Origin: a virus
Taxonomy: Duplodnaviria; Caudoviricetes
IMG/VR virus record: IMGVR_UViG_3300042291_000844
Coordinates: 160,001-224,000 of that record
Length of the DNA stretch: 64,000 nucleotides
Direction: 5' to 3' (one strand)
In this document: in pieces, positions 29,073 to 62,461 of the stretch
Position numbering within the stretch: position 1 is the stretch's first letter
How the letters are laid out: every line of letters begins with the position of its first letter
Translations under genes and position numbers: made by a program
The notes under the pieces: generated by a model
The model's input: the letters and a program-made list of their open reading frames with translations, nothing else
The model's database searches: none
Told to the model about the DNA's origin: nothing

Positions 29073-29701
29073 TACTGATATATTTTTTGTGTGCTCAAAT
29101 CATTATACAACCAACTACCACCACAATGTGGATTATTTGAATGTATCTTTGATGAATGAAATATTTCTAATCCTCTCTGTGCTTGTTCTGGTGACATGTA
29201 CATATGCCAACCTATACAATCAAACTCATCCTCTTTATATAATTTGTATTTATGTCTGCCATCGTATATCATCGGTCTTGCCCACTCATTGAATTTTTCA
29301 TCATCAGTAAGTATCATACCACCTTGTCCAATATTTAGGATTTTCTTAATGTGAAACGATAATATCATATAATTTTCACCATCGTACATTCCTTGATGAA
29401 ATGCAGTTGCTGCATCTACTATTGGTGCACCATCGAATTTATATAAACCATCCCATTCGTAATCTTCGAATACCGGTTTGTTACCAGATAGGATAATTTG
29501 GTTTGGTACGGATACATAAGTTCGTGCAGGTATTCCAATTTCTTGACCGGTTATACCCAAATAGTGTAATACCAAGCGAATTGCATTAGAATTTGAATCA
29601 CATGCGATACCATACTTTGAACCACAATAATCTGCTATTTCATTTTCAAAGTGGGTAACCCAATCCCAACTATCATTTATTGTATAATCTCTCATATTCA
29701 T
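29072..29701 (-). CDS. DegT/DnrJ/EryC1/StrS-family PLP aminotransferase (short form)
   Basis: FENEIADYCG, VDAA, LSFHIKK..GQGGMILTDD. Confidence 0.85.
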   Translation of the reverse strand: MNMRDYTINDSWDWVTHFENEIADYCGSKYGIACDSNSNAIRLVLHYLGITGQEIGIPARTYVSVPNQIILSGNKPVFEDYEWDGLYKFDGAPIVDAATAFHQGMYDGENYMILSFHIKKILNIGQGGMILTDDEKFNEWARPMIYDGRHKYKLYKEDEFDCIGWHMYMSPEQAQRGLEIFHSSKIHSNNPHCGGSWLYNDLSTQKIYQ

Positions 29702-35292: not shown

Positions 35293-35614
35293 TTATTTTT
35301 TTATTTGTATAGTTTTTTAATTCAGTAACTCGCTGACACATTTCATATTCTTCATTTTCTAATGCCCATTCCATTATTTTATCTAATGTTTCATCATACC
35401 CATCTTTATAAATTGAAAAATCATATGCCATATGTTTCCCTCTTACAAATGCTTCAACTCTTAGGCATTTAACCTCATTTAACTCATTATATAATAATTC
35501 TTCACACCCAATCAATAATTCAGACATTAATACTGATTTACCTCTATCAGTTGCCCATTCAAAAATATCAGAATTACCTATATAAATTGTTAATATTTCT
35601 TTTGGTTCATCCAT
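35282..35614 (-). CDS. Hypothetical protein with C-terminal UVR-like motif
   Basis: EWALENEEYEMCQRVTEL. Confidence 0.5.
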   Translation of the reverse strand: MDEPKEILTIYIGNSDIFEWATDRGKSVLMSELLIGCEELLYNELNEVKCLRVEAFVRGKHMAYDFSIYKDGYDETLDKIMEWALENEEYEMCQRVTELKNYTNKKINEF

Positions 35615-36486
35615 TAGTGTTTTAAATCTAGCAATTCATTATACGCATCTAATTCGTGCACTAGAAATGCTTGAATACTATCAATTAACGTATCTATGTT
35701 AAATTTGTTTTCATTAATTAACCAATTATTTAAATATTTTTTATTCGATGGTTGAAGTATTACTGGAAATACTGACATATCCTCTTTATTATCTAAATCT
35801 ATTATTTTTATTTTAGATTCTAATCTATATTTTTTTACAAATTTGCTTAAAAAAATATGCCAACCTGATGCATGTTCATCTCTAACCAAATCTGGACCAG
35901 TTGTTAATGCATACTCATTCAAAATTTTGTTAATACTTTCAGTTGATAATTGATTAAAATTATACCCATTAGAAGGTGTAATTATTATTTGAAAATATTT
36001 TTGGAAAATATCTCTTGAAAAAGGATGTATCATTGAATTTGAAAAATATGCATCACAATTTTCTATAAAAGCAGTTAATGTGCGTTTAATCGGTTCTCTT
36101 ACAATAGCAACTAATTGCCATTGATTTAATACATCATCACTTATTATCTCTGATATTTTTTTTATTTTTAATTTTGAGAAAAATGAATCAACGGTTAAAT
36201 ATGATTTTGACGATACATCAAAATAATAATTATCAAAAATTAATCTAGAATCAAAATTAGGGTCTGTTTTTTGACTATCAGTATATCTTAAAATTTTAAA
36301 TTCTATTGTAGTAGGATTATCTGTTCCTTGATTTGGTTTTGTAATATCTTCAAAATATCTACTACCTATTTTTTTTGTTGTAAAAATCATTTGACTTGCA
36401 AATAACGATATACACAATATAGGTAATTCTGAGCCTTCTTTAAAAAGAATGTCTCTTTTTATTTCATCAATATTTTGTTGATTCAT
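35614..36486 (-). CDS. Sulfotransferase-like protein
   Basis: TKKIGSRYF and VREPIKRTLTAF. Confidence 0.55.
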   Translation of the reverse strand: MNQQNIDEIKRDILFKEGSELPILCISLFASQMIFTTKKIGSRYFEDITKPNQGTDNPTTIEFKILRYTDSQKTDPNFDSRLIFDNYYFDVSSKSYLTVDSFFSKLKIKKISEIISDDVLNQWQLVAIVREPIKRTLTAFIENCDAYFSNSMIHPFSRDIFQKYFQIIITPSNGYNFNQLSTESINKILNEYALTTGPDLVRDEHASGWHIFLSKFVKKYRLESKIKIIDLDNKEDMSVFPVILQPSNKKYLNNWLINENKFNIDTLIDSIQAFLVHELDAYNELLDLKH

Positions 36487-47177: not shown

Positions 47178-48044
47178 TTAGTTTTCCATATATTCAATAA
47201 TAGAATCTGCTATATATTGATGTTGTAATAGGGTTGGGTGGCCATTTTCAGTATTTGGAAATTCATATTGAATACGTGAGTAAGGAAATGTATTTTCCCA
47301 TTCCTTCCATTTTTTATAATACTTACCATCATATCCTTTTAATGGAATTAAATACTTTTCTATCATTGGATGTGATGCTAATATTTCAGAAGTCAATCCA
47401 TCCCAAGAATCTATTAAATATACATTAGTAGTTTCCAACCATTTTTTTAAATGTTTATCTATAAAAACATCCAAATTTCGTTTAAACATTTCAATGAATA
47501 AATGATATATGTGTTCAATGTTAATTATATGTTGCGTTCCTATAATTGGAATATTTTCATATTTTTCTAACCAATTTAAAAAAAACATATCTCTTTCTGA
47601 TAGTGGAATATTTTCTAATTGTTTATTCATGCACTCTAAATAAAACATAATTGGTCTAATATTTCCATATTTAGTCTTACAAAATTCACAAGGACACTCA
47701 TCATCATAGTGTAAAAGCATTCTATCAAATATTGTAAATTGATATACAACTGCTTTAGGATTTTTATCTAAATTATCAGTAATTAATTCAGCAGGGGCAT
47801 TAAACCCACCACCATTGTAATCTAATGTTATTTGATTACAGTTAAATTTACTAGAAACAATACCAGCAAATCTATTAGATTCTCTAAATATAATACCATC
47901 TAACGTTTGCTTTGGTTCTAATTCATTCCATCCATTTAAATTATGTCTTTCATTAATCCAAAATGGGGTATCTAAATATAATTCTAACCCCTCACCCCAA
48001 GTGAAAGAATCGCCACCAAAAACCATTATATTCTTATTTTCCAT
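47178..48044 (-). CDS. SGNH-like protein (paralog 5)
   Basis: FGGDSFTWGEGLE, GHPTLLQH. Confidence 0.7.
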   Translation of the reverse strand: MENKNIMVFGGDSFTWGEGLELYLDTPFWINERHNLNGWNELEPKQTLDGIIFRESNRFAGIVSSKFNCNQITLDYNGGGFNAPAELITDNLDKNPKAVVYQFTIFDRMLLHYDDECPCEFCKTKYGNIRPIMFYLECMNKQLENIPLSERDMFFLNWLEKYENIPIIGTQHIINIEHIYHLFIEMFKRNLDVFIDKHLKKWLETTNVYLIDSWDGLTSEILASHPMIEKYLIPLKGYDGKYYKKWKEWENTFPYSRIQYEFPNTENGHPTLLQHQYIADSIIEYMEN

Positions 48045-48924
48045 CTAAATGTGTTATTATTGATTTTGCCAAATATTGGTGTTGTAACAGAGTTGGGTGA
48101 CCATTCCATGTTTCTGGAAATTCGTTTATAATTCGTTTATGTGGAAATGTAGTTTCCCATTCCAAATAATTTGTATAATAGGTGTTATCAAACCCCAATA
48201 AAGGAATCATTCTTTTACTAAATTCAGGTAGTTCGTTAATTACATTAGATGAATTTTCATCCCAAGAATCTATGAAATATACTGGTGCTATAGTTTCCCA
48301 TTTAGATACATAGTCTTTCATGAACAAATTTAAATTTCGTATAAACAGTGGTTTAAACCAATTATCAATTTGTTGAAATAAAGTACTATAATCTAAATTT
48401 TTATAAGGAATATTTTCATTTTTTTCCAACCATCTTAAAGCCCAATAATCAGTATCAGTTATAACATCATTATTAATATGTTTATGTATGTATTTGGTAT
48501 AGATATTCCATGGTTTTTCAAATCCTGTTGTAACACAAAATTTACATTTACAATCTTTATCTAAATGTAATGACATTCTTTGAATAGTTGTAAATTGTAA
48601 AATTATACATTTTATTTTATTAGGTCTGAACCCTACATCATTTTGTATATTTCTTTCAATATGTACAATTGGAGTTTCAAACTGACCTCCATTGAATTCA
48701 AAAACCCGCGGGTCAACATTAAAATAATTTGATACTATGGCTGGAAATCGATTTGATTCTCTAAATTTTTGAGATTCATAATCTTGTTTTTGATATAATT
48801 GAGTCCAACCATTTATTTTGGTTCGCTCATCAATCCATTTTGGGGTATCTAAATATAATTCTAGACCTTCACCCCACGTAAAGGAATCTCCACCAAAAAT
48901 GATTACATCATTTGTATTACTCAT
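48034..48924 (-). CDS. SGNH-like protein (paralog 6; tandem duplicate of paralog 5)
   Basis: Shares FGGDSFTWGEGLELYLDTP and NGHPTLLQHQY with 47178..48044. Confidence 0.7.
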   Translation of the reverse strand: MSNTNDVIIFGGDSFTWGEGLELYLDTPKWIDERTKINGWTQLYQKQDYESQKFRESNRFPAIVSNYFNVDPRVFEFNGGQFETPIVHIERNIQNDVGFRPNKIKCIILQFTTIQRMSLHLDKDCKCKFCVTTGFEKPWNIYTKYIHKHINNDVITDTDYWALRWLEKNENIPYKNLDYSTLFQQIDNWFKPLFIRNLNLFMKDYVSKWETIAPVYFIDSWDENSSNVINELPEFSKRMIPLLGFDNTYYTNYLEWETTFPHKRIINEFPETWNGHPTLLQHQYLAKSIITHLDGK

Positions 48925-49961: not shown

Positions 49962-50222
49962 TTATTTCTTAGTAGCAGTTTTTTTAGCCTTTACTGATTT
50001 AGCAACTGTCTCTACTACATTAATTGCAGTTTCGTTTTGAGTAGCAATTTCTTGTCCTTGTTTAGTTACTTTTTTTGCTTTAGCAATTCCAGTTTTAACT
50101 TTATCAGTTACTTTCTTTGCTTCCGGTGCAATTACTTCCACTTCGTTTACAAATTTTTCAACTGAATTTTCAATCTGTTCTGCTTTAGAGAAAAGATTCT
50201 TAATGAATGCGAATAATCCCAT
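49962..50222 (-). CDS. Ala/Lys-rich hypothetical protein
   Basis: 86 aa, preceded by ATATTTAT. Confidence 0.7.
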   Translation of the reverse strand: MGLFAFIKNLFSKAEQIENSVEKFVNEVEVIAPEAKKVTDKVKTGIAKAKKVTKQGQEIATQNETAINVVETVAKSVKAKKTATKK

Positions 50223-50272
50223 AATTTTTGGTTTTTGGTTTGTTAATAAATATAAATATAAAATTTTAAAAG

Positions 50273-50548
50273 TTATTCTTCACCATATAATGACCATTTT
50301 TTCTCTGGTTCTGGTTGTATAACTCTCTCTTCGGTATCTATAATGTACGTGAATCCTTCTCTAGCATCCATATAGAACTGCGTATTACCGGTCTTTTGGT
50401 AAACATACTCCAATACTTCAGTTAGGGATTGTAGTGTGACTTGAGGGTTGTCAAGAGGTTGCCACCTATCTCCAGGTGGAACTCTCTTAGCAATTTTTGT
50501 TTTAACCTCTTCTTGTATGATTTCTAATTGTTTTCCCATACTATTCAA
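50273..50548 (-). CDS. Hypothetical protein
   Basis: 91 aa ORF. Confidence 0.7.
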   Translation of the reverse strand: MNSMGKQLEIIQEEVKTKIAKRVPPGDRWQPLDNPQVTLQSLTEVLEYVYQKTGNTQFYMDAREGFTYIIDTEERVIQPEPEKKWSLYGEE

Positions 50549-50753
50549 TTACTCTTAGTACTCTACTTTCTTTAGCACCACTTACTTTGTAATCAATTTG
50601 AACACCTGCTTTTTCAAAATCCTTAACAACTCTTGCTTCCGCTTCGGTTACTGATTGTGCATCTACTAAATAAATTTCTTTATTTTTCTTTTCTTTACCA
50701 TTTTTAAGTGTGGCAACCACCACTTCAACTGCAACTTCAAAATACTTGTTCAT
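50541..50753 (-). CDS. DUF4494-family protein
   Basis: YFEV...NGKEKK.KE.YLVDA.S.TEAEAR. Confidence 0.8.
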   Translation of the reverse strand: MNKYFEVAVEVVVATLKNGKEKKNKEIYLVDAQSVTEAEARVVKDFEKAGVQIDYKVSGAKESRVLRVIE

Positions 50754-50786
50754 ACGTTTTTTTGTTTAAATTATTAATTATAAGTC

Positions 50787-50818
50787 CAAAGATACGAAAT
50801 CTTTTTCAATTTTCCAAA
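50787..50818 (-). promoter_or_regulatory. Bacteroidota sigma70-type promoter
   Basis: TTTG-N20-TATCTTTG. Confidence 0.85.
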
Positions 50819-50819
50819 T

Positions 50820-51140
50820 TTATTTTATAGGTTTTTTCCAAGTCATACCATAAAACCCATAATTTATTTGAATAGATTCTTCATCCCCCAATGCTACAGC
50901 TTCTCTTTCATCTCTATAAATTGCATCCACAGGACATTCAGGTACACATGCACCACAATCTATACATTCAGCTGGGTTGATGTATAATTGTTTACCTACC
51001 TTTTCTTCATCAGTTAATGATAAGGCATCTTGTCCTCTATCATCAATTCTAAATGGTCCGTTGATTACATCTACGGGACATACTGTTACACACGCTCCAT
51101 CTATACAACTTATACACGCTTTACCTATTATATAACTCAT
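50820..51140 (-). CDS. Dicluster (7Fe/8Fe) ferredoxin, FdxA-like
   Basis: CISCIDGACVTVCP and INPAECIDCGACVPECP. Confidence 0.93.
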   Translation of the reverse strand: MSYIIGKACISCIDGACVTVCPVDVINGPFRIDDRGQDALSLTDEEKVGKQLYINPAECIDCGACVPECPVDAIYRDEREAVALGDEESIQINYGFYGMTWKKPIK

Positions 51141-51703
51141 TAATATTCGTATTCTTTTTTCGGACCAGTTAAGTTACCATTTAATAAGAATGAACAATTA
51201 AAACATAGCATTCTTAAATTATCATATTTGTGATTACATCTATTACCATCTGCGAAATCTAATACCAATGGAACTTTACCATCAGTAATTCTTTTTTCCT
51301 CAAACCCACAACTATTACATTTTTCTAACATATAACCATTTAGTAGTAATCTTTGTTTTAATTTCCAAATTGGATAATCTGGATATTTACCTGCTACAAT
51401 ATCATCTAATGAAAATTTACCTCTTTTGATATTAAATCCTTTACGAATTCCTTTACCATCGGGATTCTTTAGATTTTCAAAAATACCATATTGTCTTGCG
51501 TATTTTTTATAGGTGTTATATGATATACCTAACACCCTTGCTGCTTCCATTGCAGAACGAGCCTTTGATTGTGCATCTTTGATTTCGGATTCCATTATAG
51601 GTTTAGCACCCAATCCTCTTTTCATTCTCCTACTATTACCAGCCAAAGAAAGATTCTTAGTTGGGTCAAAGTTAGGGAATATCTTTTCCTCATTATTTTC
51701 CAT
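51140..51703 (-). CDS. HTH plus degenerate HNH/Zn-finger protein
   Basis: SAMEAARVLGISYNT HTH; CxxC...LDFADGN..N..NLRMLCFNCS. Confidence 0.7.
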   Translation of the reverse strand: MENNEEKIFPNFDPTKNLSLAGNSRRMKRGLGAKPIMESEIKDAQSKARSAMEAARVLGISYNTYKKYARQYGIFENLKNPDGKGIRKGFNIKRGKFSLDDIVAGKYPDYPIWKLKQRLLLNGYMLEKCNSCGFEEKRITDGKVPLVLDFADGNRCNHKYDNLRMLCFNCSFLLNGNLTGPKKEYEY

Positions 51704-51767
51704 AGTAACTATATTTTATTATAAGTATAGTGTAGAATAATTTTTGTATGAAAATGAGTAAAATATA

Positions 51768-52916
51768 TTATAATAGTATTGTTTTGTGAAATTTATTTAG
51801 CATATCAAAACCTTTATTTGATATTTCATATGCTAATAATGAATTGTGTAATAATCTATTTTTATTTTGATTTCTGAATTCTAAAATATCTAATTCTGAT
51901 ACTCGTTTTAATTCCTTGCACATTTCTTTTAAACGTTGATGTGGATTTACTATATTTTCATATGAGTTATGATTTATAAAATCATCAAATAAATCAAACC
52001 CAAAATTTCTCAATATAGTATTCAATCCTTTTAGTCCATATATCATAGGAAGTTGATAAGCAAGAAATGGTTTTATTGTTTTTTCAGTAAAGGTTATTAA
52101 TCCATATTCAGAATTATCGCCCTTTACTAATCCAGTTACATTTTCCGTAATAAAATTTAAAGGTAAATTATAACTATTATCTATTTTATTTTGAATCCAT
52201 ATTGGTTCACTTGAATCGTAATCTAATATCTTTGGAACTTGTTCTTTTTTTAATATTGTATAATCTGATTCAGTTATATAATTATTTTCTAATAATTCAA
52301 TTAACATTTCATCATATACTTTTTTATTAAATTGATATCCACCTGTTGGATTACTCGTATAAAATAAAAATGATGTGTGGGCGTTATTGATATTATGTTT
52401 TTTCATTTCTAAAAAAAATAATATTCTTTGCATTCTAAGACTTCCATTAAATGACATAAACCCATTTTTCATTTTATTCTCTTGATGATTTTTTTCAACT
52501 TTTATATATGAATCAGATGATGTATTCATGAATCCATAAAACGTCAATTCATGTCCATAAATACATTCATATTTAACATTAACTTTATTTAAATAATTAG
52601 ATAAATCACTATCTACAAATAGATAAAATTTATTAGGAATGGAATCCGTTAGTTCTTTAAAATAATCTAAAAATATTTGTAAGTTACCACTTTCAGTAGT
52701 TATATCAACTACAAATTTAGTAGTATCTTTCGTGTATTTTTTTATATTTTCAAAATTATCCTGCACACCTTCTCTATGTAAATGAATAATATCATATTGA
52801 CCGGTGGCAGTATCAATATCATCATAATCAATATAAAATCGTGCAAATATTCGATTTAGTTGATTGTTTACATCTAATATTCTTATATCTGAATTAGTTA
52901 TCATCTCTAACAACAT
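51768..52916 (-). CDS. Glycosyltransferase-like (GT-B) protein, paralog of 18666..19832
   Basis: FMSFNG, FITEN, TEKTIKPF, GFDLFDD. Confidence 0.5.
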   Translation of the reverse strand: MLLEMITNSDIRILDVNNQLNRIFARFYIDYDDIDTATGQYDIIHLHREGVQDNFENIKKYTKDTTKFVVDITTESGNLQIFLDYFKELTDSIPNKFYLFVDSDLSNYLNKVNVKYECIYGHELTFYGFMNTSSDSYIKVEKNHQENKMKNGFMSFNGSLRMQRILFFLEMKKHNINNAHTSFLFYTSNPTGGYQFNKKVYDEMLIELLENNYITESDYTILKKEQVPKILDYDSSEPIWIQNKIDNSYNLPLNFITENVTGLVKGDNSEYGLITFTEKTIKPFLAYQLPMIYGLKGLNTILRNFGFDLFDDFINHNSYENIVNPHQRLKEMCKELKRVSELDILEFRNQNKNRLLHNSLLAYEISNKGFDMLNKFHKTILL

Positions 52917-53925
52917 CTAATGTTACGCAATGTGGTCCACCACTAAACGTTCTAGCATGTCTCATTTTTACAGGGATTGATTCAATACCCCATTTTTTTA
53001 ATTCCCTCATTAATAATGCTTGGTTTTCTTCAACCATACATAATCTATCATTAATAGGTAATATATTCATACCCAACCACGGGGAAGCAGGACACCAATC
53101 TTCCATTACTTGAGTTGCGTATGGTTCTGGTGCCCAAATTTTATCAAAATCATTTAACATCTGAGGACAGTTTGTCCAATTCACCCTTGATGGGTTAAGC
53201 ATCACTAATCCTTCTCTTAGGAATACAAAAGTTGTATCAATATGAATGTATGCATAAACATTTTCAGCAGTATGAACTTTATATTCATTACCAAATGTTT
53301 CTTTACAATAATTTTCTAACCAAATTGCACCATCTTTATTTCCAGTATTACTTACTAAATATAATAAATCATTATTGTGTTTAATAACGTTTGCTGCATC
53401 AAAGACGGGTTCACCATTTAATAGAGTGGGTATTTTTAAATTATCTCTCTGATAAATAGAATCTAATAATTTTGGTTTAGGTGCTTCCACCCAATGATTC
53501 GGGTCAAATAATCTTTTACAAGTTTCTGCTTCATTTGAACGATGACGGAGTGTCATAGGAGTTGCGATTACTTTATCATTAATAACCAACATTGAATCGC
53601 GAGGACAATAATTATAGTAACCATCCACTTCCCAATCATCGGTCTTAATTGGTTGTGAGAAATCTCTTTCATCTGGTCTATGTACTTTTATACCAAGTGA
53701 TTGTAAAGTTCTTGCTATTTCATTTAAATCCTGCTCGGTTTCCTCCATTATTTTTTCAGGATATGGACCAGAGGGTCTTTTAGCAAATTCTTCATTCGAT
53801 AAATGTGCATAATCTATACTATGTAAACATTTATCACCAATTGTTGGTACTTGTGCACCAATTGGACTACCTACGATGATTTCACGTAATTGACCCCATT
53901 CGTTTCGTACTTGTGGCTTTATCAT
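52894..53925 (-). CDS. Amidinotransferase (glycine/inosamine-phosphate type)
   Basis: NEW..LREIIVG, CPRD, FDAAN, HIDT, GGPHCVTLD.R catalytic Asp/His/Cys. Confidence 0.92.
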   Translation of the reverse strand: MIKPQVRNEWGQLREIIVGSPIGAQVPTIGDKCLHSIDYAHLSNEEFAKRPSGPYPEKIMEETEQDLNEIARTLQSLGIKVHRPDERDFSQPIKTDDWEVDGYYNYCPRDSMLVINDKVIATPMTLRHRSNEAETCKRLFDPNHWVEAPKPKLLDSIYQRDNLKIPTLLNGEPVFDAANVIKHNNDLLYLVSNTGNKDGAIWLENYCKETFGNEYKVHTAENVYAYIHIDTTFVFLREGLVMLNPSRVNWTNCPQMLNDFDKIWAPEPYATQVMEDWCPASPWLGMNILPINDRLCMVEENQALLMRELKKWGIESIPVKMRHARTFSGGPHCVTLDVVRDDN

Positions 53926-54788
53926 ATTATTTTAGTTTTTAGTTTAAAATCTTTTAATTCTTTCCAATTTATATCTATCTTTTCTAAATTAATCAATCCT
54001 AACTCAATTAAAGTATTATAAATAGTCATTGCAACAATTTTATTACTTACATATCCATTATGTAAATCCCCATCAATTCCATCGGTTTCACATTTTATTG
54101 ATAAATTATTATAAGCTGAAAATTGATTAAAATCATTTGATTTTTTAAAATATTCACCATCTCCAAATATAAAGTTTTTACCAATATTTCCTTCAAACAC
54201 ATCACTAACGTAAAAATAATTCAATTGGTGTAGTTTTAAATAACTAGAAAAGAATTCAATATTTTGAAAAAGTAATTTATGTTCCTTTTGTAAATCTAAT
54301 GTATGTTGAAAAAATTCTAAAAACATTGATTTATAGTTTTTTAGATTATTTTCCACTTCAAAGGTTTCATAACCATATGAATTAGCTAAATTAACTTCAT
54401 CTTTAAGTTTACCAGTATTCCAATCAAACCAATAATTTAATACTATATAATCTTGTATTGGGTTAAACCAATATTCGGTTCTACCTAATCCAGCGTATTC
54501 AATTATAAAAATATGTTCATCTTTGTTAAAATCTGGAGTGTTAATTATTTGATAAATTTGTCTGAATGTTCTATCATTTCCATATCCATTTTTAGCATAG
54601 TTAATAACTTTAATATCCTTATTTAATATTTTTTTAAGTTGACCAGGATATGAAAAATTAAATTGAGTTAATGGGGTTTCTAATCCTTCATATAAATTAT
54701 TACGTGGATTTTTATGGCCATCAAATTCAAACCCACCACCTGCGGTGAATGATGTACCAAAACAATTGATATATTTAATTTTTGACAT
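53922..54788 (-). CDS. SGNH-like protein (paralog 7)
   Basis: CFGTSFTAGGG, NYAKNGYGND, DLHNG. Confidence 0.6.
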   Translation of the reverse strand: MSKIKYINCFGTSFTAGGGFEFDGHKNPRNNLYEGLETPLTQFNFSYPGQLKKILNKDIKVINYAKNGYGNDRTFRQIYQIINTPDFNKDEHIFIIEYAGLGRTEYWFNPIQDYIVLNYWFDWNTGKLKDEVNLANSYGYETFEVENNLKNYKSMFLEFFQHTLDLQKEHKLLFQNIEFFSSYLKLHQLNYFYVSDVFEGNIGKNFIFGDGEYFKKSNDFNQFSAYNNLSIKCETDGIDGDLHNGYVSNKIVAMTIYNTLIELGLINLEKIDINWKELKDFKLKTKII

Positions 54789-54999
54789 TGGTTTTTTTCA
54801 ATCCGTATTTAATCCAACGATACCAAATTCTTTCGTGTATATAATATTGGATGGGTTTATAAATCAATTCTGCCACTCCAAATGCAGTTCCAATTTTAAT
54901 TGAACCACTTATCCACCACATCAACAAGAACCCAATTAAGGTACTTAAAATTCGATATGAGATGGTTTTAGCAATGTGTCTTCTTTTATCTACGGTCAT
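54775..54999 (-). CDS. DUF2061 membrane protein
   Basis: RHIAKTISYR...YYIHERIW. Confidence 0.88.
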   Translation of the reverse strand: MTVDKRRHIAKTISYRILSTLIGFLLMWWISGSIKIGTAFGVAELIYKPIQYYIHERIWYRWIKYGLKKTNVKN

Positions 55000-55394
55000 A
55001 ACTTACCATCTGTTTTCAATTGTTCTCTGATAGCAGTTGCAGATATTTCCTTTATCTCATCCGGAGGACAATGTTCTATCACATCATATCCAACTCCTCT
55101 GCCAATATTGATTGATTCAATATCAGGTATGATAATAATTTTAACTTTACCTTCTTGAATTATATCTAATAATTCATGTGTAAGATTTTGTAATACTTCT
55201 AATGGAGTCCACGGGTTTTTCTCATCTGGTTCTACATCTCTAATACAAATTAGAACTTTCTTACCCTCATTCAATCTTTGGTCGATTAACCAACGATGTC
55301 CTGCATGCCAGGGTTGCCATCTACCAATGTACATTGAATACTTTACATCATTTGATGATGATTTAAACGCTGCTTGTGCTAGATACTTTTTCAT
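54996..55394 (-). CDS. HIGH-family nucleotidyltransferase (candidate minimal ATP sulfurylase)
   Basis: GRWQPWHAGH, NP, IGRGVGY, ISATAIR. Confidence 0.8.
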   Translation of the reverse strand: MKKYLAQAAFKSSSNDVKYSMYIGRWQPWHAGHRWLIDQRLNEGKKVLICIRDVEPDEKNPWTPLEVLQNLTHELLDIIQEGKVKIIIIPDIESINIGRGVGYDVIEHCPPDEIKEISATAIREQLKTDGKL

Positions 55395-56185
55395 TGTAAT
55401 TTATTTTTTATTTTATTATATATTTCTACGGCTATCGATTCGTGCCCTTTAATATTTGGATGATAATCATTTGAATCTTTTATAATATCAATTATACGTT
55501 CATTTTTATTTGATACAAATGATGATAACCCATGTTGTTGACCATAATTTACCTTACTATTATTTTTTGTCATAAAGATAGAATTATCAATAATAACAGG
55601 TTCATCATAAATACCCATCCAAAATGGATTTTCAAGATAAATAACCATAAAATTAATTTTTTTGTACAATAATTTATATAATAAATTTACAAATTGTTTA
55701 TCTCTACTAATTAAAAAATCTTTTTCATTAAAATGAGTTTCTAAAAATTTCTCCCACAACTTAAATTCGATTGGTTCTAACTGCATACCATATGTGTAAT
55801 CAGTTGTCATCATTACTGAGTATCCTTCATTCTTTGGGTCTTTCCCATCAGTTGGACCCCAATTAGTTACGATGTATTGATTTCTAGTAGAATCCCATAA
55901 TTCAGTTCTACCCCAACCTGAATACTCTAATATAAGTAATTTATCAGAAACATCTTCATTTTCGATTATTTCTTCAACATTGCGAATTAGGTAATCAATG
56001 CCACTCCCACACTTACCTAAATTTCTAACTATTGTATTTGATATTTTATTTAAATGAGATGGCCAAGATACCTCCGATTGTTTATCGTATATTATATTTT
56101 GTTTTTTATAATATTCTTTTACTAATGGGTCGTATAACCCACCGCCTTCAGTATATGATGTACCAATACAAATAATTTCCTTCAT
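55391..56185 (-). CDS. SGNH-like protein (paralog 8)
   Basis: CIGTSYTEGGG, NLGKCGSG, DYHPN. Confidence 0.65.
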   Translation of the reverse strand: MKEIICIGTSYTEGGGLYDPLVKEYYKKQNIIYDKQSEVSWPSHLNKISNTIVRNLGKCGSGIDYLIRNVEEIIENEDVSDKLLILEYSGWGRTELWDSTRNQYIVTNWGPTDGKDPKNEGYSVMMTTDYTYGMQLEPIEFKLWEKFLETHFNEKDFLISRDKQFVNLLYKLLYKKINFMVIYLENPFWMGIYDEPVIIDNSIFMTKNNSKVNYGQQHGLSSFVSNKNERIIDIIKDSNDYHPNIKGHESIAVEIYNKIKNKLQ

Positions 56186-56195
56186 TATAAATAAA

Positions 56196-56666
56196 TTATA
56201 ATTTATTAATTTTATTGAGATTATTTATTAATTTTGAAAATGAGGTATCCGGTGAATCCTTTGTAGTATTAATATCAATAAAGTTCACTTGTGGTTGTTC
56301 GTAGTTAGAAACGTGAAAATGGTCTCTTTCTCTTGCTTCGGTAGTATGTACAAATATTTCAACAATATCTTTACCGATTTTATCTTTGAATTCTTCTCTT
56401 AAATCTAAATATGGAGCTACTAATGATACTACCACATCACATTCGCATGTATGTAAGTATTCTACTAATGCTTGTGCATTTTTAATATTAGTACGTCTAC
56501 CTTGCTCTGAATAATCTTTATTTTGGTAGATTTCCCTTAGATGGTCACCATCAACATGGAAAACTGATTTTCTCCAATTACGTTTTTCAGTTTGTAAAAA
56601 CTTATGTAACTTACCACCTAAAACTGTCTTTCCTGCTGCAGGTTGACCTGTAAACCAATATATCAT
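56196..56666 (-). CDS. cysC: Adenylyl-sulfate (APS) kinase
   Basis: WFTGQPAAGKT, DGDHLR, DYS..GR..NI, VVSLVAPY, YEQP. Confidence 0.85.
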   Translation of the reverse strand: MIYWFTGQPAAGKTVLGGKLHKFLQTEKRNWRKSVFHVDGDHLREIYQNKDYSEQGRRTNIKNAQALVEYLHTCECDVVVSLVAPYLDLREEFKDKIGKDIVEIFVHTTEARERDHFHVSNYEQPQVNFIDINTTKDSPDTSFSKLINNLNKINKL

Positions 56667-57448
56667 AACTTATTCTCTCTTTTTATTTTATATCCTTTTA
56701 TGTGATATGCTTTATCATGTGATTCACACACAATATAATTACCATCAAAAAATTCATGTACTGCTTTAACAACACCAACGTGAATTTTAGTATCGCCAAA
56801 AAGATAAGTATCATTTTTTAACATTTCTTCAGTTGTATTTTTCATATCATATTGTTCATACGAATCCATACCCCCACTAAAATCATCAAAAATCATTATA
56901 CCACCATCTTTTAATTTATTATATCCGTTTTCTACATCAGATTTAACAATATCATACTCGTGACCACCGTCAATGAATACAATATCATAATAATTGTTTT
57001 CAACATTATGAATTTGTTCTCTTGAATCTCCTTCAAATACTGTAATGATATCATCTACTTTGAATTTTCTTGCTTCTGACCATAGATGTGCTTTCCATGT
57101 TTCTGGGTTACTCTCATCGTATGCCCATTCTTCTTCAATATCGACGGTGAGATTACCTTTAAACCAATCAATGATATGAAGTTCTCCATTAATCATTGGT
57201 AATTTTAATATCTTTGCATTCTCAACTGCATCCCATCCTTGAGCACATCCAATTTGTAATACTCTTGGTTTGTTGTATGTATTATTATCATCTACTCCCC
57301 AAAATTTAGCAACTAAATGGGTATAGATAAACGCAGAAATCCACGGAAGTGGTAAGTTCCAATCATTAGGATGAAAGGTTTTTCGTTCATTTGCAGTAAC
57401 AAAATACTCACTCATATCTAATGGTGGTATTGTTTTAAATCTTGACAT
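56663..57448 (-). CDS. Class I SAM methyltransferase (Methyltransf_24-like)
   Basis: QIGCAQG, EGDS, FIDGGHEYD, LKDGGIMIFDD. Confidence 0.85.
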   Translation of the reverse strand: MSRFKTIPPLDMSEYFVTANERKTFHPNDWNLPLPWISAFIYTHLVAKFWGVDDNNTYNKPRVLQIGCAQGWDAVENAKILKLPMINGELHIIDWFKGNLTVDIEEEWAYDESNPETWKAHLWSEARKFKVDDIITVFEGDSREQIHNVENNYYDIVFIDGGHEYDIVKSDVENGYNKLKDGGIMIFDDFSGGMDSYEQYDMKNTTEEMLKNDTYLFGDTKIHVGVVKAVHEFFDGNYIVCESHDKAYHIKGYKIKRENKL

Positions 57449-57464
57449 AACTTATTTTATTTAT

Positions 57465-58313
57465 CTATGATAGTAGCGAATAATATTCTTTAAAGTGTTT
57501 TATTCTGTCTGGTAATCCAATTGTACCACCATTTACTCTTTTAGTAATTTTTGTTACTACTGCATCACTAGCTCCTTCATCTGCAATCTTATGTAATCCA
57601 TTTTTAGAAAAGAACCATGCTGCTGATGCAAGTGCATATTGTGATGCAACTAACTCTGGATTAGCACACACATCTACTCCGATTGATTTACCAAATGCAG
57701 TATAGTTTTCTTTTCCTGTTAATTGAATGTATCCTCTACCACAAAACTTTGCACCTTCACCACTTGCTTCCGTTCCATTACCCATTCTATTTGAGTAAAC
57801 TTTGTTTGCAATCTTTGCAGGTTGTCTTTCGTATGCTTTAGCTAGGGCTTCAGTTGGGAAATACTTTTTGAATATACCCATTAATCCCTTTGCAGAATAG
57901 TTTAGATTTTCTTTTGTTAAACGGAATCCACCGCTCTCATGTCCACATTGTGCAAGAAAGTGTGCTACTCTTAATGGAGTATTAATACTAAACTTAGTTG
58001 CCACTTCTGGAATTGAATCAATTACTGATTGAGGAACGTGTCCTTTAAGTTTATCTAATTTCAATCCACTTGTAGATGGAGTTGATATCGGAGTTGATAC
58101 TACTGGTTTTGGTGTTACTTCAACACTCTCACCCATAATCATTTTCCATGTCTTATCACCAACTATACCATCGGGTGTCAATCCATTTTTTGTTTGAAAT
58201 GCTTTTACTGCCTCTTCGGTTTTAGGACCAAAATTGGTAACTGCTGGAGATATCCCCAACTTTTCTTGCATTAATTTTACATTTTCGTTATTGTCACCTT
58301 TTTTTAATAACAT
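57465..58313 (-). CDS. Endolysin: PG-binding domain plus GH19 muramidase
   Basis: FGPKTEEAVKAFQ..NGL.PDGIVG; HFLAQCGHES, GRGYIQLTG, TKRVNGG..GL.DR. Confidence 0.95.
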   Translation of the reverse strand: MLLKKGDNNENVKLMQEKLGISPAVTNFGPKTEEAVKAFQTKNGLTPDGIVGDKTWKMIMGESVEVTPKPVVSTPISTPSTSGLKLDKLKGHVPQSVIDSIPEVATKFSINTPLRVAHFLAQCGHESGGFRLTKENLNYSAKGLMGIFKKYFPTEALAKAYERQPAKIANKVYSNRMGNGTEASGEGAKFCGRGYIQLTGKENYTAFGKSIGVDVCANPELVASQYALASAAWFFSKNGLHKIADEGASDAVVTKITKRVNGGTIGLPDRIKHFKEYYSLLS

Positions 58314-58329
58314 ACATATCTCCTATTCT

Positions 58330-58845
58330 TTAATCTAAGTTTGATTTTAATTTACTACTAATTCTACCTAATTCCATTTTATCAATACCCAATCCATCAA
58401 TTATTTTTGCCAATAATTTAATTTTTTGATTATAAGATAATTCTTTACCATTCATTAATTCTAATGCTTTCTCAAATTTTATTTTGATTGCTGCCGGAAT
58501 TACTGCTGTGTTTATTTCATCAGCACCTTCCATAATTTTTTTTAGTTTCATAATTTTACTTTCTCCATATTGTTCATCTTCATCATCTAACCCCATAGCA
58601 ACAGCTGCAGGTTGTACATGATGGTTTGGTAACATTAAACCATATTCGGTTTTTAATTTATTAAGAATTTCTTTTTTAATATGATTTGGTAACCCTTTAT
58701 GCGATGTGGATGCAAAATCCTTGGCATCTTTATCAGTCATATCCTTTGCCACCTTTGCAACTTCTGGACTTGCAGGTTTCTCGCCTTTTTGTGTAGCGTG
58801 AACCATACCCATAAATCGTTGTTGTGCTTTAGATACTGATGGCAT
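58330..58845 (-). CDS. DUF3008-like protein with C-terminal extension
   Basis: MPSVSKAQQRFMG..QKGE...DFAST.HKGLP. Confidence 0.65.
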   Translation of the reverse strand: MPSVSKAQQRFMGMVHATQKGEKPASPEVAKVAKDMTDKDAKDFASTSHKGLPNHIKKEILNKLKTEYGLMLPNHHVQPAAVAMGLDDEDEQYGESKIMKLKKIMEGADEINTAVIPAAIKIKFEKALELMNGKELSYNQKIKLLAKIIDGLGIDKMELGRISSKLKSNLD

Positions 58846-58877
58846 ATTTCTTCCTTATTTAGTATAAATATAGAATT

Positions 58878-59405
58878 TTAATGTTTTATATGTTGAACTC
58901 TCCACTTAACGTTCTTAGTTCTCAACATTTGTTTTGCTGCTGATACATTTTTCTCCGAATCATCTACAAAGTAAATATCATCATAACCTTCATTATCAAT
59001 CATATTTTCAATCCAATCTGCTTTATCTTTTGGATTATTAGATGCAAGTGCAACCACATAAATTTTTTTAGAATTTATACCTATATCACTTAAATATTTT
59101 TTGATTGGTTGGTATGATGCTCGTGCTGTAAGGATATACACCACCTCTTTACTTTTTTGAACGATACCTCTAAGGATTTTAGTTATCTTTTGTATCTCTT
59201 GTGGTTCTTTTACCTGTTCAAAATCTTTAAAATCATAAACATCGCCAGGTTTTTCAGTATACACTGCATATTGGCCGGGTGTCAGTTTACTCTTCATTCC
59301 ATTATTATGGGTGACGTAGATATAAGAGTTTGTTTTGACAAGAGTATCATCAAAATCAAATATTCGTAAATTTTTACTTTCAGTAAATAAATTTCTTGAA
59401 ATCAT
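58878..59405 (-). CDS. HAD-family phosphatase
   Basis: IFDFDDTL, ILTAR, FVDDS. Confidence 0.8.
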   Translation of the reverse strand: MISRNLFTESKNLRIFDFDDTLVKTNSYIYVTHNNGMKSKLTPGQYAVYTEKPGDVYDFKDFEQVKEPQEIQKITKILRGIVQKSKEVVYILTARASYQPIKKYLSDIGINSKKIYVVALASNNPKDKADWIENMIDNEGYDDIYFVDDSEKNVSAAKQMLRTKNVKWRVQHIKH

Positions 59406-59440
59406 AGATGTATATAAATATTACTAACCTTTTTAATGAG

Positions 59441-59472
59441 TAAAGATACGAAAAAAAGCTTAGATTTCCAAA
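59441..59472 (-). promoter_or_regulatory. Bacteroidota sigma70-type promoter
   Basis: TTTG-N20-TATCTTTA. Confidence 0.7.
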
Positions 59473-59482
59473 TTTATTTATA

Positions 59483-60103
59483 CTAACTATTTAAGAAATT
59501 GGATAAGAAACCAGATAAACGATTAGCCCTTTCCATAAAGAACCCCTTCTCTTCGTTTGTAAGTTTTTTTGGTTTGATATAATCAATTCCAACTATACCA
59601 ATACATGCTTCAGTTTTTATATCAAAAAGTGCTATACAATAAGCTGCTTTTGTACCACCTACTTCTGCTCCTGGTTTTAATCCGAATGTTGCTATGGTTG
59701 GGTCCTCAAAATTAGGAATAAAAATATAACCAGTTTTAAGTATTTCATCAATTGATTTTGCAAATAGAGAAAGGGGTATATTTGTAAATGTATGTGCTAT
59801 TTTAGCAACTCCTGGTCTTTCTACTTCATGTACTATTGAAAATTTTTGAATAGATTTATTGGTATGTAGATAGTTCCCTCCATTATGAAACATTGATATC
59901 CAAACTCTATCACCTTTAAGTTCTTCTCTGATGTTTTCGATTTCCTCTTCAATAACAAGTCCTTGTTGACATCCTTTTTTAATAGGGTCTTCTTTGTCTT
60001 TCTTAGATAATTTAATCTTAACCCATTCTAATACGATTGGACCGATTACTGCTGTTATCAAAGCAATTATAATTGTAGCAAATATTTCCATTTGGTGTGA
60101 CAT
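59483..60103 (-). CDS. Single-TM protein with GAF-like domain (T4 holin T-like candidate)
   Basis: N-terminal TM; FHNGG, KFSIVHE, GIVGIDY alpha/beta pattern; near the endolysin. Confidence 0.5.
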   Translation of the reverse strand: MSHQMEIFATIIIALITAVIGPIVLEWVKIKLSKKDKEDPIKKGCQQGLVIEEEIENIREELKGDRVWISMFHNGGNYLHTNKSIQKFSIVHEVERPGVAKIAHTFTNIPLSLFAKSIDEILKTGYIFIPNFEDPTIATFGLKPGAEVGGTKAAYCIALFDIKTEACIGIVGIDYIKPKKLTNEEKGFFMERANRLSGFLSNFLNS

Positions 60104-60124
60104 TACTTTTGAACCTTTAATTTA

Positions 60125-60424
60125 TTATTGTTCCTTGTCAAACCCGTAGTTGGCTTGGTTGATGTAATTTTGGGATTTTGAGATATGGTCTTGTATCCAT
60201 GCGGCTACATTAAATTCACTATCACCCATTTTTTGTTTTAATTCTGTTGCAGACTTGATTATATCATCTAATTGTTTTTGTGCCATAGATACTTCATAAT
60301 CGGAATCCTCACCCTCTTTAAGAGGTTTAAATGCATTTGCGTAAGGATTACTATACACCTTACCCAACTCCACCTTACGACCGTTCCAGTCCATTCCAGT
60401 CATTATATTTTTTAAACTTATCAT
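60125..60424 (-). CDS. Putative internal virion protein
   Basis: MISLKNIM N-terminus; LKEGE..YEVSMA..QL...WIQDHI. Confidence 0.5.
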   Translation of the reverse strand: MISLKNIMTGMDWNGRKVELGKVYSNPYANAFKPLKEGEDSDYEVSMAQKQLDDIIKSATELKQKMGDSEFNVAAWIQDHISKSQNYINQANYGFDKEQ

Positions 60425-60428
60425 ATGA

Positions 60429-61778
60429 TTATCCTATATAGCAGTTTAATTCGTATTTGGTTTTCATTCCATATACTTGGATTTGTAGCATTTTTCGTTG
60501 AACCTTACCATCTTTAGATAATTCAATACTAAATCTATTAGTCTTACCTTCCGATGGTTTTTTTGGACCCATTCCTATTTTTGTGAATGAATCATCATCG
60601 TTAATAGTATATCCTTGCTTCTCTGCATATTCTTTAGCTGCGGTGATAGCTGAAGTATATGAGTTATGGTATACTTCATACTTTGCTTCGTTTATTTTTG
60701 ATTCACTAAAAGCTTTGATAATACCTTGTGCGTATTTATTATTAGCTTTACCTACAATAGCAGTCGAAATATCCATTCTATTACTCAATGTATGCGGGCC
60801 TTTCATTTTAAGAAATGCAAATAATTTTCTAGCATGAATATTATTATCATCAATAAACTTTTGAACCGCATCTCCTCTAAGACCTGTTAGTGCTGCAATT
60901 CCCATTGCTTCTACACTTGCAGCTTCGTTTACTGATTCGTTATTTATTTTTTTGATTCCCAATCCACTCTTTATTTTAGTAAGGGTTTGTAGAGCGTTTT
61001 TTAATCTTTGTTGGATTAGATTTTTTTGAGTTGATGATTTGGTTGAATTCATCTTATCTCTCAATGCTTTAATTCTATCATTAAGTTTTTGTATTCTATC
61101 ACCCTCTACTGATTCTTGTATGTTTAATTCGTCTTGATATTGTGTTATTTGATTATAATCTGAATCTAATAATTCCTCTTCAATATCACGTCTTGATGCT
61201 TTTGAATTTCTACATACTATAACTGCTACTTTCTTTTTTGTGAATGAACCACCTCTATCATACATTTTCATTATTTCTTTAAAATGTACATCGTTTCTAC
61301 TCATTTCATTTACTGATTCACCAAACTCACCTCTACCATCTTTTTCTGCTGCTCTCATTGCACTACTGCTATTTCTCATATCAGGAGATGCGTTTTTAAG
61401 ATATTTAATAACTTGAATTTGTTTTGCTAATAAATCTTTATATATTTTAGCGTATTCTTCTTTAGAAACTAAACCATTTTTTAATAAGAATAATACAAGT
61501 GCAGGTTGTTTACCCCTAGTCTTTACATCTGATTGGGTAGTACCAGTTAATTTAGCTAAATCATTTGCTACATATATTCTATGTCCTAATGTTTTACCTA
61601 CTAATTTTGTTATGGGTTCATTAACATAAGCCATTGCTAAATCCAAAATTTCGGTTGGTGTCATATTTTTATCGGTATATTGTTTTTTACCGAAATCATA
61701 TGTTGCTTCTGATATTGATTGGTGGAAATTTTCACGAATCAATTTTGCAATTACCTTTTTTAAATCATCCATTTTCAT
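60429..61778 (-). CDS. Putative multi-domain internal-head polyprotein
   Basis: Five (E/Q)S-x(1-3)-E junctions (SISE, ESVNE, ESVE, ESVNE, ESKINE); preceded by ATATTTAT. Confidence 0.5.
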   Translation of the reverse strand: MKMDDLKKVIAKLIRENFHQSISEATYDFGKKQYTDKNMTPTEILDLAMAYVNEPITKLVGKTLGHRIYVANDLAKLTGTTQSDVKTRGKQPALVLFLLKNGLVSKEEYAKIYKDLLAKQIQVIKYLKNASPDMRNSSSAMRAAEKDGRGEFGESVNEMSRNDVHFKEIMKMYDRGGSFTKKKVAVIVCRNSKASRRDIEEELLDSDYNQITQYQDELNIQESVEGDRIQKLNDRIKALRDKMNSTKSSTQKNLIQQRLKNALQTLTKIKSGLGIKKINNESVNEAASVEAMGIAALTGLRGDAVQKFIDDNNIHARKLFAFLKMKGPHTLSNRMDISTAIVGKANNKYAQGIIKAFSESKINEAKYEVYHNSYTSAITAAKEYAEKQGYTINDDDSFTKIGMGPKKPSEGKTNRFSIELSKDGKVQRKMLQIQVYGMKTKYELNCYIG

Positions 61779-61813
61779 ACTTCTATTATTTTAATATATC
61801 AATAAATATTGAA

Positions 61814-62461
61814 TTATTTTTTTAATCGGATTTTCCAATAAACTCCTGCACCAACATATGGTTTAAATTCACCATTTACTCCATCGATTGTTGAGTTTGT
61901 AACTCCTAAATTAACTTGATATATCTTATCTTTTTTAGTTTTTAATATTACTCCAGTACTAAGACCATTAATAAAATCAGCCTTATTAAATTGACCACCG
62001 AATCCAAAATAAAGTTGATTCTTAGGTAATTCTTTTACTATTGTAGTTTCTTTAATAACTCTTTGTTTAACATTTGCATTAAAAGTTCTGCCAAATATTT
62101 TGTTTTGTGAAATTGTATCAGTTACTGCAACTGTTCCTAATGAATCAGGTAATACTAATACATCTTTGTATAATACTTTTGTATAGTATTCTTTTAGGAT
62201 TGCGTTAGTATCTACGTTTGCAGGTACTCTAACCTCTTTTTCAACGATTGTCTCGTGGTAAATATCTTCACCTTTTTTAGTTACTACTTTTGTCTTAACT
62301 ACTTCAATTGTATCAATTTCATGTTTAATAAGTTCATACTTTTTACCATCTACTTTTACAATTTCACCCGTTCCTTTTTTGTTTCCACCACATTGTTGGA
62401 ATACAACAATTACAATTAATAATAATAATGCAATGTTTTTGATGTTTAATAATTTTTTCAT
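61814..62461 (-). CDS. Lipoprotein/membrane protein with C-terminal beta strands (spanin-like candidate)
   Basis: Hydrophobic signal ending FQQC; C-terminus YVGAGVYWKI. Confidence 0.45.
   Translation of the reverse strand: MKKLLNIKNIALLLLIVIVVFQQCGGNKKGTGEIVKVDGKKYELIKHEIDTIEVVKTKVVTKKGEDIYHETIVEKEVRVPANVDTNAILKEYYTKVLYKDVLVLPDSLGTVAVTDTISQNKIFGRTFNANVKQRVIKETTIVKELPKNQLYFGFGGQFNKADFINGLSTGVILKTKKDKIYQVNLGVTNSTIDGVNGEFKPYVGAGVYWKIRLKK

Follow-up and report, generated by a model that had tools for sequence, protein, structure and literature searches.

The question raised by the locus described here is whether a phage could make the sulfate donor 3'-phosphoadenosine 5'-phosphosulfate (PAPS) when no recognised ATP sulfurylase is encoded nearby. 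The locus lies in a 64,000-nucleotide stretch of viral DNA (positions 160,001 to 224,000 of IMG/VR virus record IMGVR_UViG_3300042291_000844; hereafter the window, meaning the whole stretch). A predicted adenosine 5'-phosphosulfate (APS) kinase, a nucleotidyltransferase of the HIGH superfamily with 132 amino acids (aa; designated NT) and a small membrane protein of family DUF2061 are encoded there in one operon, as had been proposed in a sequence-only reading of the window and as was borne out by matches to PF01583, PF01467 and PF09834 and by the coupling of the open reading frames (ORFs). The same reading had noted that no canonical sat or cysDN gene is present in the window, and this was confirmed: a Sat hidden Markov model (HMM) built from five Sat domains gave no match to the six-frame translation, tblastn with Sat and CysD returned only short pieces (best E 0.05) and neither family was among the Pfam matches of the 63 window ORFs.

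Comparative genomics indicates that NT is probably a miniature ATP sulfurylase of an undescribed kind which feeds APS to the kinase, and the operon is likewise likely to encode, in just two enzymes, a complete PAPS synthase of a kind not yet described. That the kinase-NT pair works in sulfate activation is considered highly likely. No description of the NT family was found in a literature search.

Linkage of NT to APS kinase

The NT family numbers 5,104 proteins when clustered at 90%, and 1,062 clusters when the threshold is 50% identity. A relative of NT is encoded on more than 500 viral stretches and on at least 105 stretches lying in species-representative genomes. Among these genomes are SAR406/Marinimicrobia, marine Flavobacteriales, other Bacteroidota, Marinoscillum, Marine Group II/III archaea, Nitrospiraceae, Patescibacteria, Ignavibacteria and Pyrinomonadaceae; in a phylum-level search, NT was present in only 3 of 101 Marinimicrobia genomes, all of approximately 1 Mb.

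Linkage was assessed in 80 cellular loci (79 of which contained an NT ORF) and 80 viral loci, neighbourhood statistics with cysC having been suggested as a check on the sequence-only reading. An APS kinase was located within 3 kb of NT, or fused to it, in 145 of the 159 NT-bearing loci. Among the cellular loci, 5 were fusions, 55 had the kinase no more than 300 bp away and a further 8 had it at up to 3 kb, giving 68 within 3 kb when fusions are counted, while all 80 viral loci carried NT, none of them as a fusion, with the kinase within 300 bp in 66 and within 3 kb in 77. In most related viral loci the kinase directly abuts NT, with no intervening gene, and Sat was absent from all 20 long viral records carrying the kinase-NT pair that were searched, 7 of which are at least 90% complete.

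Many NT homologues were observed to be fusions with an APS-kinase domain, in both domain orders. The fused kinases display the canonical CysC motifs L-G-F-S-x-x-D-R-x-E-N, S-P-Y and R-D-x-K-G-L-Y and score 159-200 bits against TIGR00455 (cut-off 138.7), while full-length stand-alone partner kinases score 276.7 and 249.8 bits; judged by sequence, the full-length kinase partners of NT are true CysC proteins. One fusion family, phrog_10255, occurs in Salvo-type Xylella and Xanthomonas phages. In Xylella phage Bacata (LR743524.1, 29138-30314) the kinase-NT gene is annotated 'Adenylylsulfate kinase' and overlaps a COG3236/NADAR-like gene, and the context of NT in these Salvo-type siphophages is unlike that in marine and freshwater phages.

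Distribution of NT relative to known ATP sulfurylases

Among 151 sampled Flavobacteriales genomes, each at least 80% complete, CysC was identified in 71, CysD in 104, Sat in none and NT in 6. Among the CysC-bearing genomes, 65 of the 71 possessed CysD, usually adjoining cysC, and no NT, while in the other 6 NT was situated approximately 150 bp from CysC and both CysD and Sat were absent. In the Flavobacteriales genome G004 (1.6 Mb), 13-14 genes for sulfotransferases were counted, and five of these lie 4-11 kb from cysC-NT; the genome combines an APS kinase and many users of PAPS with the absence of CysD and Sat, and therefore has no recognised source of APS.

Similar results were obtained in the first five NT genomes examined, four of which lacked Sat and CysD and had as their sole APS kinase the one beside NT, and in another 26 NT genomes, drawn from many phyla, of which 20 lacked both Sat and CysD. 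Sulfotransferases were identified in 23 of 31 NT genomes compared to 2-3 of 14 controls, with Sulfotransfer_3 matches in 18 of the 26 further genomes compared to 2 of 14 controls. In a Patescibacteria metagenome-assembled genome (MAG; G256, approximately 1 Mb, of the Candidate Phyla Radiation (CPR)), a short kinase-NT pair was observed approximately 2.5 kb from a Sulfotransfer_3 gene (G256:C7:82337-82915), and no Sat or CysD was found in that genome.

The five NT genomes checked for other PF01467 proteins each contained 3-6 further matches which were stronger than NT (approximately 56-85 bits); NT is therefore not the housekeeping nicotinamide mononucleotide adenylyltransferase (NMNAT) or phosphopantetheine adenylyltransferase (PPAT) of these genomes.

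NT in a sulfate-reduction operon of Nitrospiraceae

In Nitrospiraceae, NT sits in an assimilatory sulfate-reduction operon, with the same-strand order Rrf2 regulator, sulfite reductase-TusA fusion, PAPS_reduct (CysH) and NT, and no kinase adjoins it. Each of three Nitrospiraceae genomes (L170/G275, L171/G273 and L173/G272) encodes a Sat-like domain within a reading frame of 582-588 aa. The GRDHAG motif of this domain has been lost in every case (GWDYAS, EPNYAA and GQDYAS) and the Q-T-R-N-P-x-H-x-x-H motif is also altered in two of the three. Going by these substitutions, the domains are probably catalytically dead. The APS kinase of T. denitrificans (PDB 3cr8) has an inactive Sat-like domain. 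Given that the Sat-like motifs have decayed, NT would be the sole intact candidate for sulfate adenylylation in these genomes.

Motifs, fold and descent of NT

NT belongs to the HIGH-signature nucleotidyltransferase superfamily, having H-x-G-H and I-S-x-T on a Rossmann-like fold and a PF01467 score just above the cut-off of 21 bits. The residues invariant across the family are G24, R25, Q27, P28, H30, G32, H33, R52, D53, N60, P61, G98, R99, V101, G102, Y103, S118, T120 and R123. It had been proposed that HAGH (residues 30-33), IGRGVGY (97-103) and ISAT (117-120) occupy positions matching the motifs of Sat. All three are present, but H-x-G-H and I-S-x-T occur superfamily-wide, and the equivalence of GRGVGY to Sat GRDHAG is unsupported, as hhalign of NT against five Sat catalytic domains gave a probability of 14% and paired Sat G-R-D with I-R52-D53 of NT and not with G-R99-G-V-G-Y.

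A single-domain structure was predicted for NT with AlphaFold2 (AF2; predicted local distance difference test (pLDDT) 88.5). The model matched NMNAT 1f9a best (Z 9.9, root mean square deviation (rmsd) 2.9 over 112 residues), along with PPAT 4nah (Z 9.6) and NadM (Z 9.3), while Sat 1v47 ranked eighth VIA-wide (Z 7.5) and Sat matches appeared only at Z 7.5 or below. A Foldseek comparison with Sat, which had been suggested as a check, went the other way, with no Sat among the top 50 PDB matches and NMNATs nearest. By sequence, the nearest PDB entries were NadM 2qjo and archaeal NMNATs; a family-profile search of the PDB returned MJ0541 (1f9a) at E 7e-12 and listed no Sat up to E 10. The nearest NCBIfam models were likewise those of NadM/archaeal NMNAT, all far below their cut-offs (33 bits against TIGR01527, cut-off 181.2; 33.3 bits against NF002243, cut-off 127), and cellular members of the family also fell below the NMNAT equivalog cut-offs.

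The profile alignment to MJ0541 spans residues 4-76 and 110-137 of that protein, and residues 77-109 have no counterpart anywhere in the NT family; a short loop including the invariant G-R-x-V-G-Y replaces this 33-residue acceptor-binding segment of NMNAT. NT is thus a reduced NMNAT-like enzyme, the nearest relatives of which are archaeal/NadM NMN adenylyltransferases, with the acceptor segment deleted. Membership of the Sat family was not found in any respect examined: there was no match to PF01747, the active-site motifs Q-x-R-N-P-x-H-x-x-H and G-R-D-H-A-G are absent (NT carries G-R-W-Q-P-W-H-A-G-H, the NMNAT form), and the whole of NT is smaller than the catalytic domain of Sat (approximately 210 aa), which follows an N-terminal PUA-like domain. 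Descent of NT from Sat by reduction was ruled out on the Foldseek and VIA-wide results. The proposal of a stripped-down ATP sulfurylase therefore survives as a function, for which genomic context makes it the best-supported reading, and not as an ancestry, since both profile and fold point to NMNAT.

The short APS kinase

The phage kinase exceeded the PF01583 cut-off of 21.1 bits (E 2.4e-14; score in Table 1), and the solved structures nearest to it in sequence are APS kinases (5cb6, E 2.5e-8). It retains the P-loop GQPAAGKT and the motifs D-G-D-x-x-R, Y-S-x-x-G-R-x-x-N-I, A-P-Y and Y-E-x-P. Alignment with the CysC proteins of loci L060 and L006 showed that approximately 24 residues, which hold the canonical R-D-x-K-G-L-Y, are missing, and the protein scored 53 bits against TIGR00455, below the cut-off. 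The short form of the kinase was also found beside NT in SAR406, Marine Group III archaea and Patescibacteria.

DUF2061 and sulfate activation

The DUF2061 protein of the phage was identified well above the PF09834 cut-off of 23.1 bits, with 51 of 52 model positions covered. Of the 80 viral loci, 35 had DUF2061 within 300 bp of NT and 42 had it within 3 kb; among the 79 cellular loci it was near NT in only 4. In 29 of the 50 Flavobacteriales genomes containing DUF2061, it was located directly upstream (same strand, within 1 kb) of cysC-cysD or cysD, as a single copy or a tandem duplication, often in one ORF of 130-170 aa. At locus L175 (G056:C8:2300-4400), for example, two DUF2061 copies, cysC and cysD follow one another with a 5-nt gap and an 8-nt overlap. 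These DUF2061-cysC-cysD operons tie DUF2061 to sulfate activation independently of NT, an association which is undescribed. Of the earlier suggestion that DUF2061 is a sulfate-related membrane component, the link to sulfate thus holds; as to what the protein does, sulfate entry and membrane anchoring are guesses.

Proposed mechanism and alternative explanations

The sulfurylase reading of NT follows from four observations: its fusion or adjacency to APS kinase, its distribution complementary to that of CysD, the cysI-cysH-NT operons and the DUF2061-cysC-cysD operons. In the mechanism proposed, NT would bind MgATP through G-R25, H30-x-G-H33 and I-S118-x-T120-x-x-R123, and the small pocket left by the replaced acceptor segment, with its short loop including G-R99-G-V-G-Y103, would accept sulfate. 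Attack of sulfate on the alpha-phosphate of ATP would then yield APS and pyrophosphate. By homology, the trimmed APS kinase would phosphorylate the 3'-OH of APS to give PAPS, pulling the unfavourable first step forward; such coupling is consistent with the frequent kinase-NT fusions. The PAPS would be consumed by one or more phage proteins of the sulfotransferase fold, and DUF2061 would be a small membrane protein of sulfate-activation operons generally.

A wider claim may well hold, and is advanced with more reserve: that NT constitutes a third class of ATP sulfurylase, of independent origin and smaller than any known, with a core of approximately 112-130 aa derived from an NMNAT-like ancestor, which activates sulfate together with APS kinase or CysH in abundant lineages with no other apparent means of doing so (SAR406, marine Flavobacteriales, Marine Group II/III archaea, some CPR bacteria and Nitrospiraceae) and fuels phage sulfotransferases on more than 500 viral contigs, with DUF2061 as a dedicated membrane component.

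Several observations weigh against a sulfurylase function. The nearest characterised relatives of NT are NMN adenylyltransferases and not sulfurylases, and the sulfate-binding motifs of Sat cannot be mapped onto NT, given the 14% hhalign probability. Less confidence attaches to the substrate of the phage kinase than to that of its full-length counterparts, because the R-D-x-K-G-L-Y segment is absent and the score lies below the CysC equivalog cut-off, and the kinase and NT genes of this phage are not adjacent, an unrelated gene lying between them. The fusion in Salvo-type phages adjoins a NADAR/COG3236 gene, which is an NAD-related context. The exclusion of Sat and CysD by NT is not absolute, since NT co-occurs with a Sat of intact motifs in G005, G259 and G264 and with a CysD-like gene in G258, and most of the genomes used are MAGs or single-amplified genomes (SAGs). 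Finally, the six NT-bearing Flavobacteriales may form a single clade and so reflect one evolutionary event, for which reason the argument rests on the hole in the pathway and not on independent counts.

The main rival, though an unlikely one, is that NT adenylylates a phosphorylated organic acceptor, such as NMN or nicotinic acid mononucleotide (NaMN), 4'-phosphopantetheine, or a sugar or cyclitol phosphate. The kinase would then either phosphorylate the 3'-OH of the product, following the logic of PPAT and dephospho-CoA kinase, or first make the phospho-acceptor, following that of the nicotinamide riboside (NR) kinase and NMNAT of NadR, and the neighbouring tailoring genes of this phage, the amidinotransferase and methyltransferase among them, would act on the product. 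Sequence and fold do place NT closest to NadM/archaeal NMNAT and PPAT, and many members are labelled 'nicotinamide mononucleotide adenylyltransferase' by the Joint Genome Institute (JGI); yet the segment which forms the NMN site of MJ0541 is deleted family-wide, scores against the NMNAT equivalogs remain far under the cut-offs (33 compared to 181, for example), and the genomes checked possess other, stronger PF01467 proteins. The divergence of the phage kinase from TIGR00455 would suit a different substrate, but the full-length partners are bona fide CysC proteins and the only APS kinases in genomes without any sulfurylase. The NADAR/COG3236 gene of Salvo-type phages, and the StrB1-like amidinotransferase of the present operon, for which the model substrate is an inosamine phosphate, also fit an organic acceptor; the links with cysI-cysH, DUF2061-cys operons and sulfotransferases, however, speak specifically for sulfate, and every cellular context examined disfavours this explanation.

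On a reading less probable still, NT would accompany APS kinase in a non-catalytic or regulatory capacity, as a scaffold or as a sensor of ATP or APS, or would consume APS (APS + pyrophosphate -> ATP + sulfate), with sulfate being activated by another, unrecognised source. A precedent exists in the inactive Sat-like domain fused to the T. denitrificans APS kinase, degenerate Sat-like domains were seen in Nitrospiraceae, and some genomes carry both Sat and NT. In NT itself, however, divergent members show little or no variation at R25, H30, H33, S118, T120 and R123, which would be unexpected of a dead domain, the 20 of 26 NT genomes described above have no other candidate sulfurylase, and sulfurylases are reversible, so that an enzyme running in the reverse direction would be the same enzyme. 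Activation of another oxyanion (selenate, molybdate, thiosulfate or a phosphonate-type compound), or use of a nucleotide other than ATP, to give a PAPS analogue is very improbable. Known sulfurylases do accept group-VI oxyanions, but no observation specifically favours this reading, and sulfate is indicated by the canonical CysC partners, by the sulfotransferases of PAPS type and by the cysH/cysI neighbours.

The operon and its phage context

The minus-strand genes between 51768 and 57448 overlap by 4-23 nt or lie 10 nt apart and therefore form one translationally coupled operon (Table 1). At least 4 independent metagenome samples show this gene order, so the arrangement is not due to chance or misassembly. 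Missing from the sequence-only reading was the 264-aa ORF between the kinase and NT.

Table 1. Genes of the coupled operon, listed in gene order from 57448 down to 51768, followed by the sulfotransferase-like genes of the window
Feature	Position	Strand	Basis and remarks
Methyltransf_24 methyltransferase	56663-57448	minus	PF13578, 59.2 bits; first gene of the coupled operon; stop overlaps kinase start by 4 nt
Short-form APS kinase, 156 aa	56196-56666	minus	PF01583, 54.1 bits
264-aa protein of a virus-only family	55391-56185	minus	Between kinase and NT
NT, 132-aa HIGH-superfamily nucleotidyltransferase	54996-55394	minus	PF01467, 21.9 bits
DUF2061 small membrane protein, 74 aa	54775-54999	minus	PF09834, 56.4 bits; start overlaps NT stop by 4 nt
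288-aa paralogue of the 264-aa protein	53922-54788	minus	BLASTP E 5e-15
StrB1-like amidinotransferase, 343 aa	52894-53925	minus	phmmer against PDB; phrog_25854
382-aa protein, last gene of the coupled operon	down to 51768	minus	No function assigned
Sulfotransferase-fold protein, 334 aa	34288-35292	minus	Fold and motifs; likely PAPS consumer
Second sulfotransferase-like protein, 290 aa	35614-36486	minus	Weak support; paralogue
Third sulfotransferase-like candidate, 211 aa	2467-3102	minus	Motifs only

The 264-aa protein gave no Pfam, NCBIfam or PHROG match, its neighbours in the sequence atlas were all viral, with a faint link to DUF6071, and it is probably not part of PAPS synthesis itself. Together with its 288-aa paralogue it is one of six minus-strand ORFs of 264-305 aa in the window (the others being 47178-48044, 48034-48924, 29673-30485 and 30478-31395), all of which begin with G-x-S-[FY]-T-x-G and most of which end with G-H-P or H-P; from these motifs they look like an expanded phage family of SGNH-like proteins. 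The amidinotransferase, for which there was no Pfam match, was most similar among PDB entries to the inosamine-phosphate amidinotransferase StrB1 (1bwd, phmmer E 6.9e-85) and also matched HsvA, SxtG and AGAT. The presence of an amidinotransferase, a methyltransferase and a PAPS module suggests a guanidinylated and possibly sulfated product.

With a guanine plus cytosine (GC) content of approximately 31% and a gene for an endolysin that combines PG_binding_1 and GH19 domains, the window seems to be a portion of a large uncultured phage genome, and the identical NT sequence was found on contigs of up to 237,724 bp. No relatives of positions 50000-62000 were found among cultured phages by megablast, and the sole tblastn matches of a 705-aa window ORF were to Microcystis phage Mel-JY01 and to an uncultured phage of 484 kb. 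The Pfam tally of the 63 window ORFs revealed an unusual auxiliary set, comprising NifU_N (E 1e-49) and cREC_REC and HAD_SAK_2, which are RNA-repair 'Swiss Army Knife' domains; a DegT aminotransferase, PfkB, an FkbM methyltransferase, a 2-oxoglutarate (2OG)-Fe(II) oxygenase, a ferredoxin and a B12-binding radical SAM protein, encoded at 3121-4917 (minus strand), also belong to this set.

Candidate sulfotransferases

Three sulfotransferase-like genes had been noted in the sequence-only reading, and they fared unequally, with none matching a Pfam sulfotransferase model (nor did any other window ORF). The protein encoded at 34288-35292 was the best supported. The top 22 VIA-wide matches of its AF2 model (pLDDT 79) were all PAPS-dependent sulfotransferases, at middling Z scores of 8.3-5.7 over approximately 200 aligned residues, while Foldseek returned no significant match (best E 0.24). 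Its family has the invariant residues K39, G41, R43, P138, R141, S144 and G145, and keeps K-x-G-T-R and R-N-P-x-x-R-F-F-S-G, which fit the 5'-phosphosulfate-binding (5'-PSB) and 3'-phosphate-binding (3'-PB) motifs. No Pfam family was matched at E 0.001, including PF00685, PF03567 and PF13469, and its homologues had no precomputed sulfotransferase Pfam assignment; the sequence atlas gave a lead to Sulfotransfer_2 and NKWYS.

The protein encoded at 35614-36486 aligned with that at 34288-35292 (BLASTP E 1e-4) across K-x-G-S-R and V-R-E-P-x-x-R and had no Pfam match, and the third candidate displayed the motifs P-L-K-C-G-S-T and I-R-E-P, with no Pfam match at E 0.01. Among 20 related viral records, PF03567 was matched in only 2. 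Going by the fold comparison, the phage encodes at least one sulfotransferase-fold protein; phage sulfotransferases, if present, are divergent.

Implications

If NT is an ATP sulfurylase, scoring of sulfate assimilation or sulfation from sat and cysDN would be wrong for several very abundant ocean lineages and many phages, and a new enzyme class would exist for a textbook reaction. A sulfurylase of approximately 115-130 aa would be a compact part for engineering PAPS supply. The phage could make PAPS itself, and large phages would carry a complete sulfate-donor pathway together with sulfotransferases, which would imply sulfation of a phage or host molecule during infection.

Comparison with known systems

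Sat and the bifunctional PAPS synthases (PF01747; human PAPSS1 1x6v, Aquifex 2gks and fungal Sat) share with NT the HIGH-signature alpha/beta phosphodiesterase superfamily, the motif order with H-x-x-H first and I-S-x-T-x-x-R last, the reaction proposed here, and coupling to APS kinase by adjacency or by fusion in both domain orders. NT, however, is approximately one third as large as the catalytic core and PUA-like domain of Sat combined, lacks Q-T-R-N-P and G-R-D-H-A-G, and matches Sat structurally (Z 7.5) less well than it does NMNAT and PPAT, so that it is not a member by descent. CysD/CysN occupies the same slot beside cysC and is mutually exclusive with NT among the CysC-bearing Flavobacteriales, but its fold is unrelated (a PAPS-reductase-like ATP pyrophosphatase with a GTPase). 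NT is not accompanied by a GTPase, and its reaction would therefore have to be driven solely by the kinase and pyrophosphatase.

The closest relatives of NT, the archaeal/NadM NMNATs (MJ0541 1f9a; M. thermautotrophicus 1ej2; NadM 2qjo and 2qjt), share with it G-R-x-Q-P-x-H-x-G-H, N-P-F-T, D-I-E and S-x-T-x-I-R; they differ in that the segment of approximately 33 residues between D-I-E (strand 3) and G-Y-E is replaced in NT by the short loop with G-R-x-V-G-Y, and in that the genomic context of NT is sulfate metabolism and not NAD metabolism. PPAT and dephospho-CoA kinase (CoaD/CoaE, or the bifunctional CoA synthase) resemble the NT pair in joining a small HIGH adenylyltransferase to a P-loop 3'-OH kinase, but the kinase partner of NT is of the APS kinase family and not of the CoaE family, and the five NT genomes checked contain other, stronger PF01467 nucleotidyltransferase matches, some of CoaD size. 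In T. denitrificans 3cr8, which the Nitrospiraceae Sat-like domains resemble, an APS kinase is likewise partnered with a HIGH-fold domain; that domain has lost its catalytic motifs, whereas those of the NT family are invariant.

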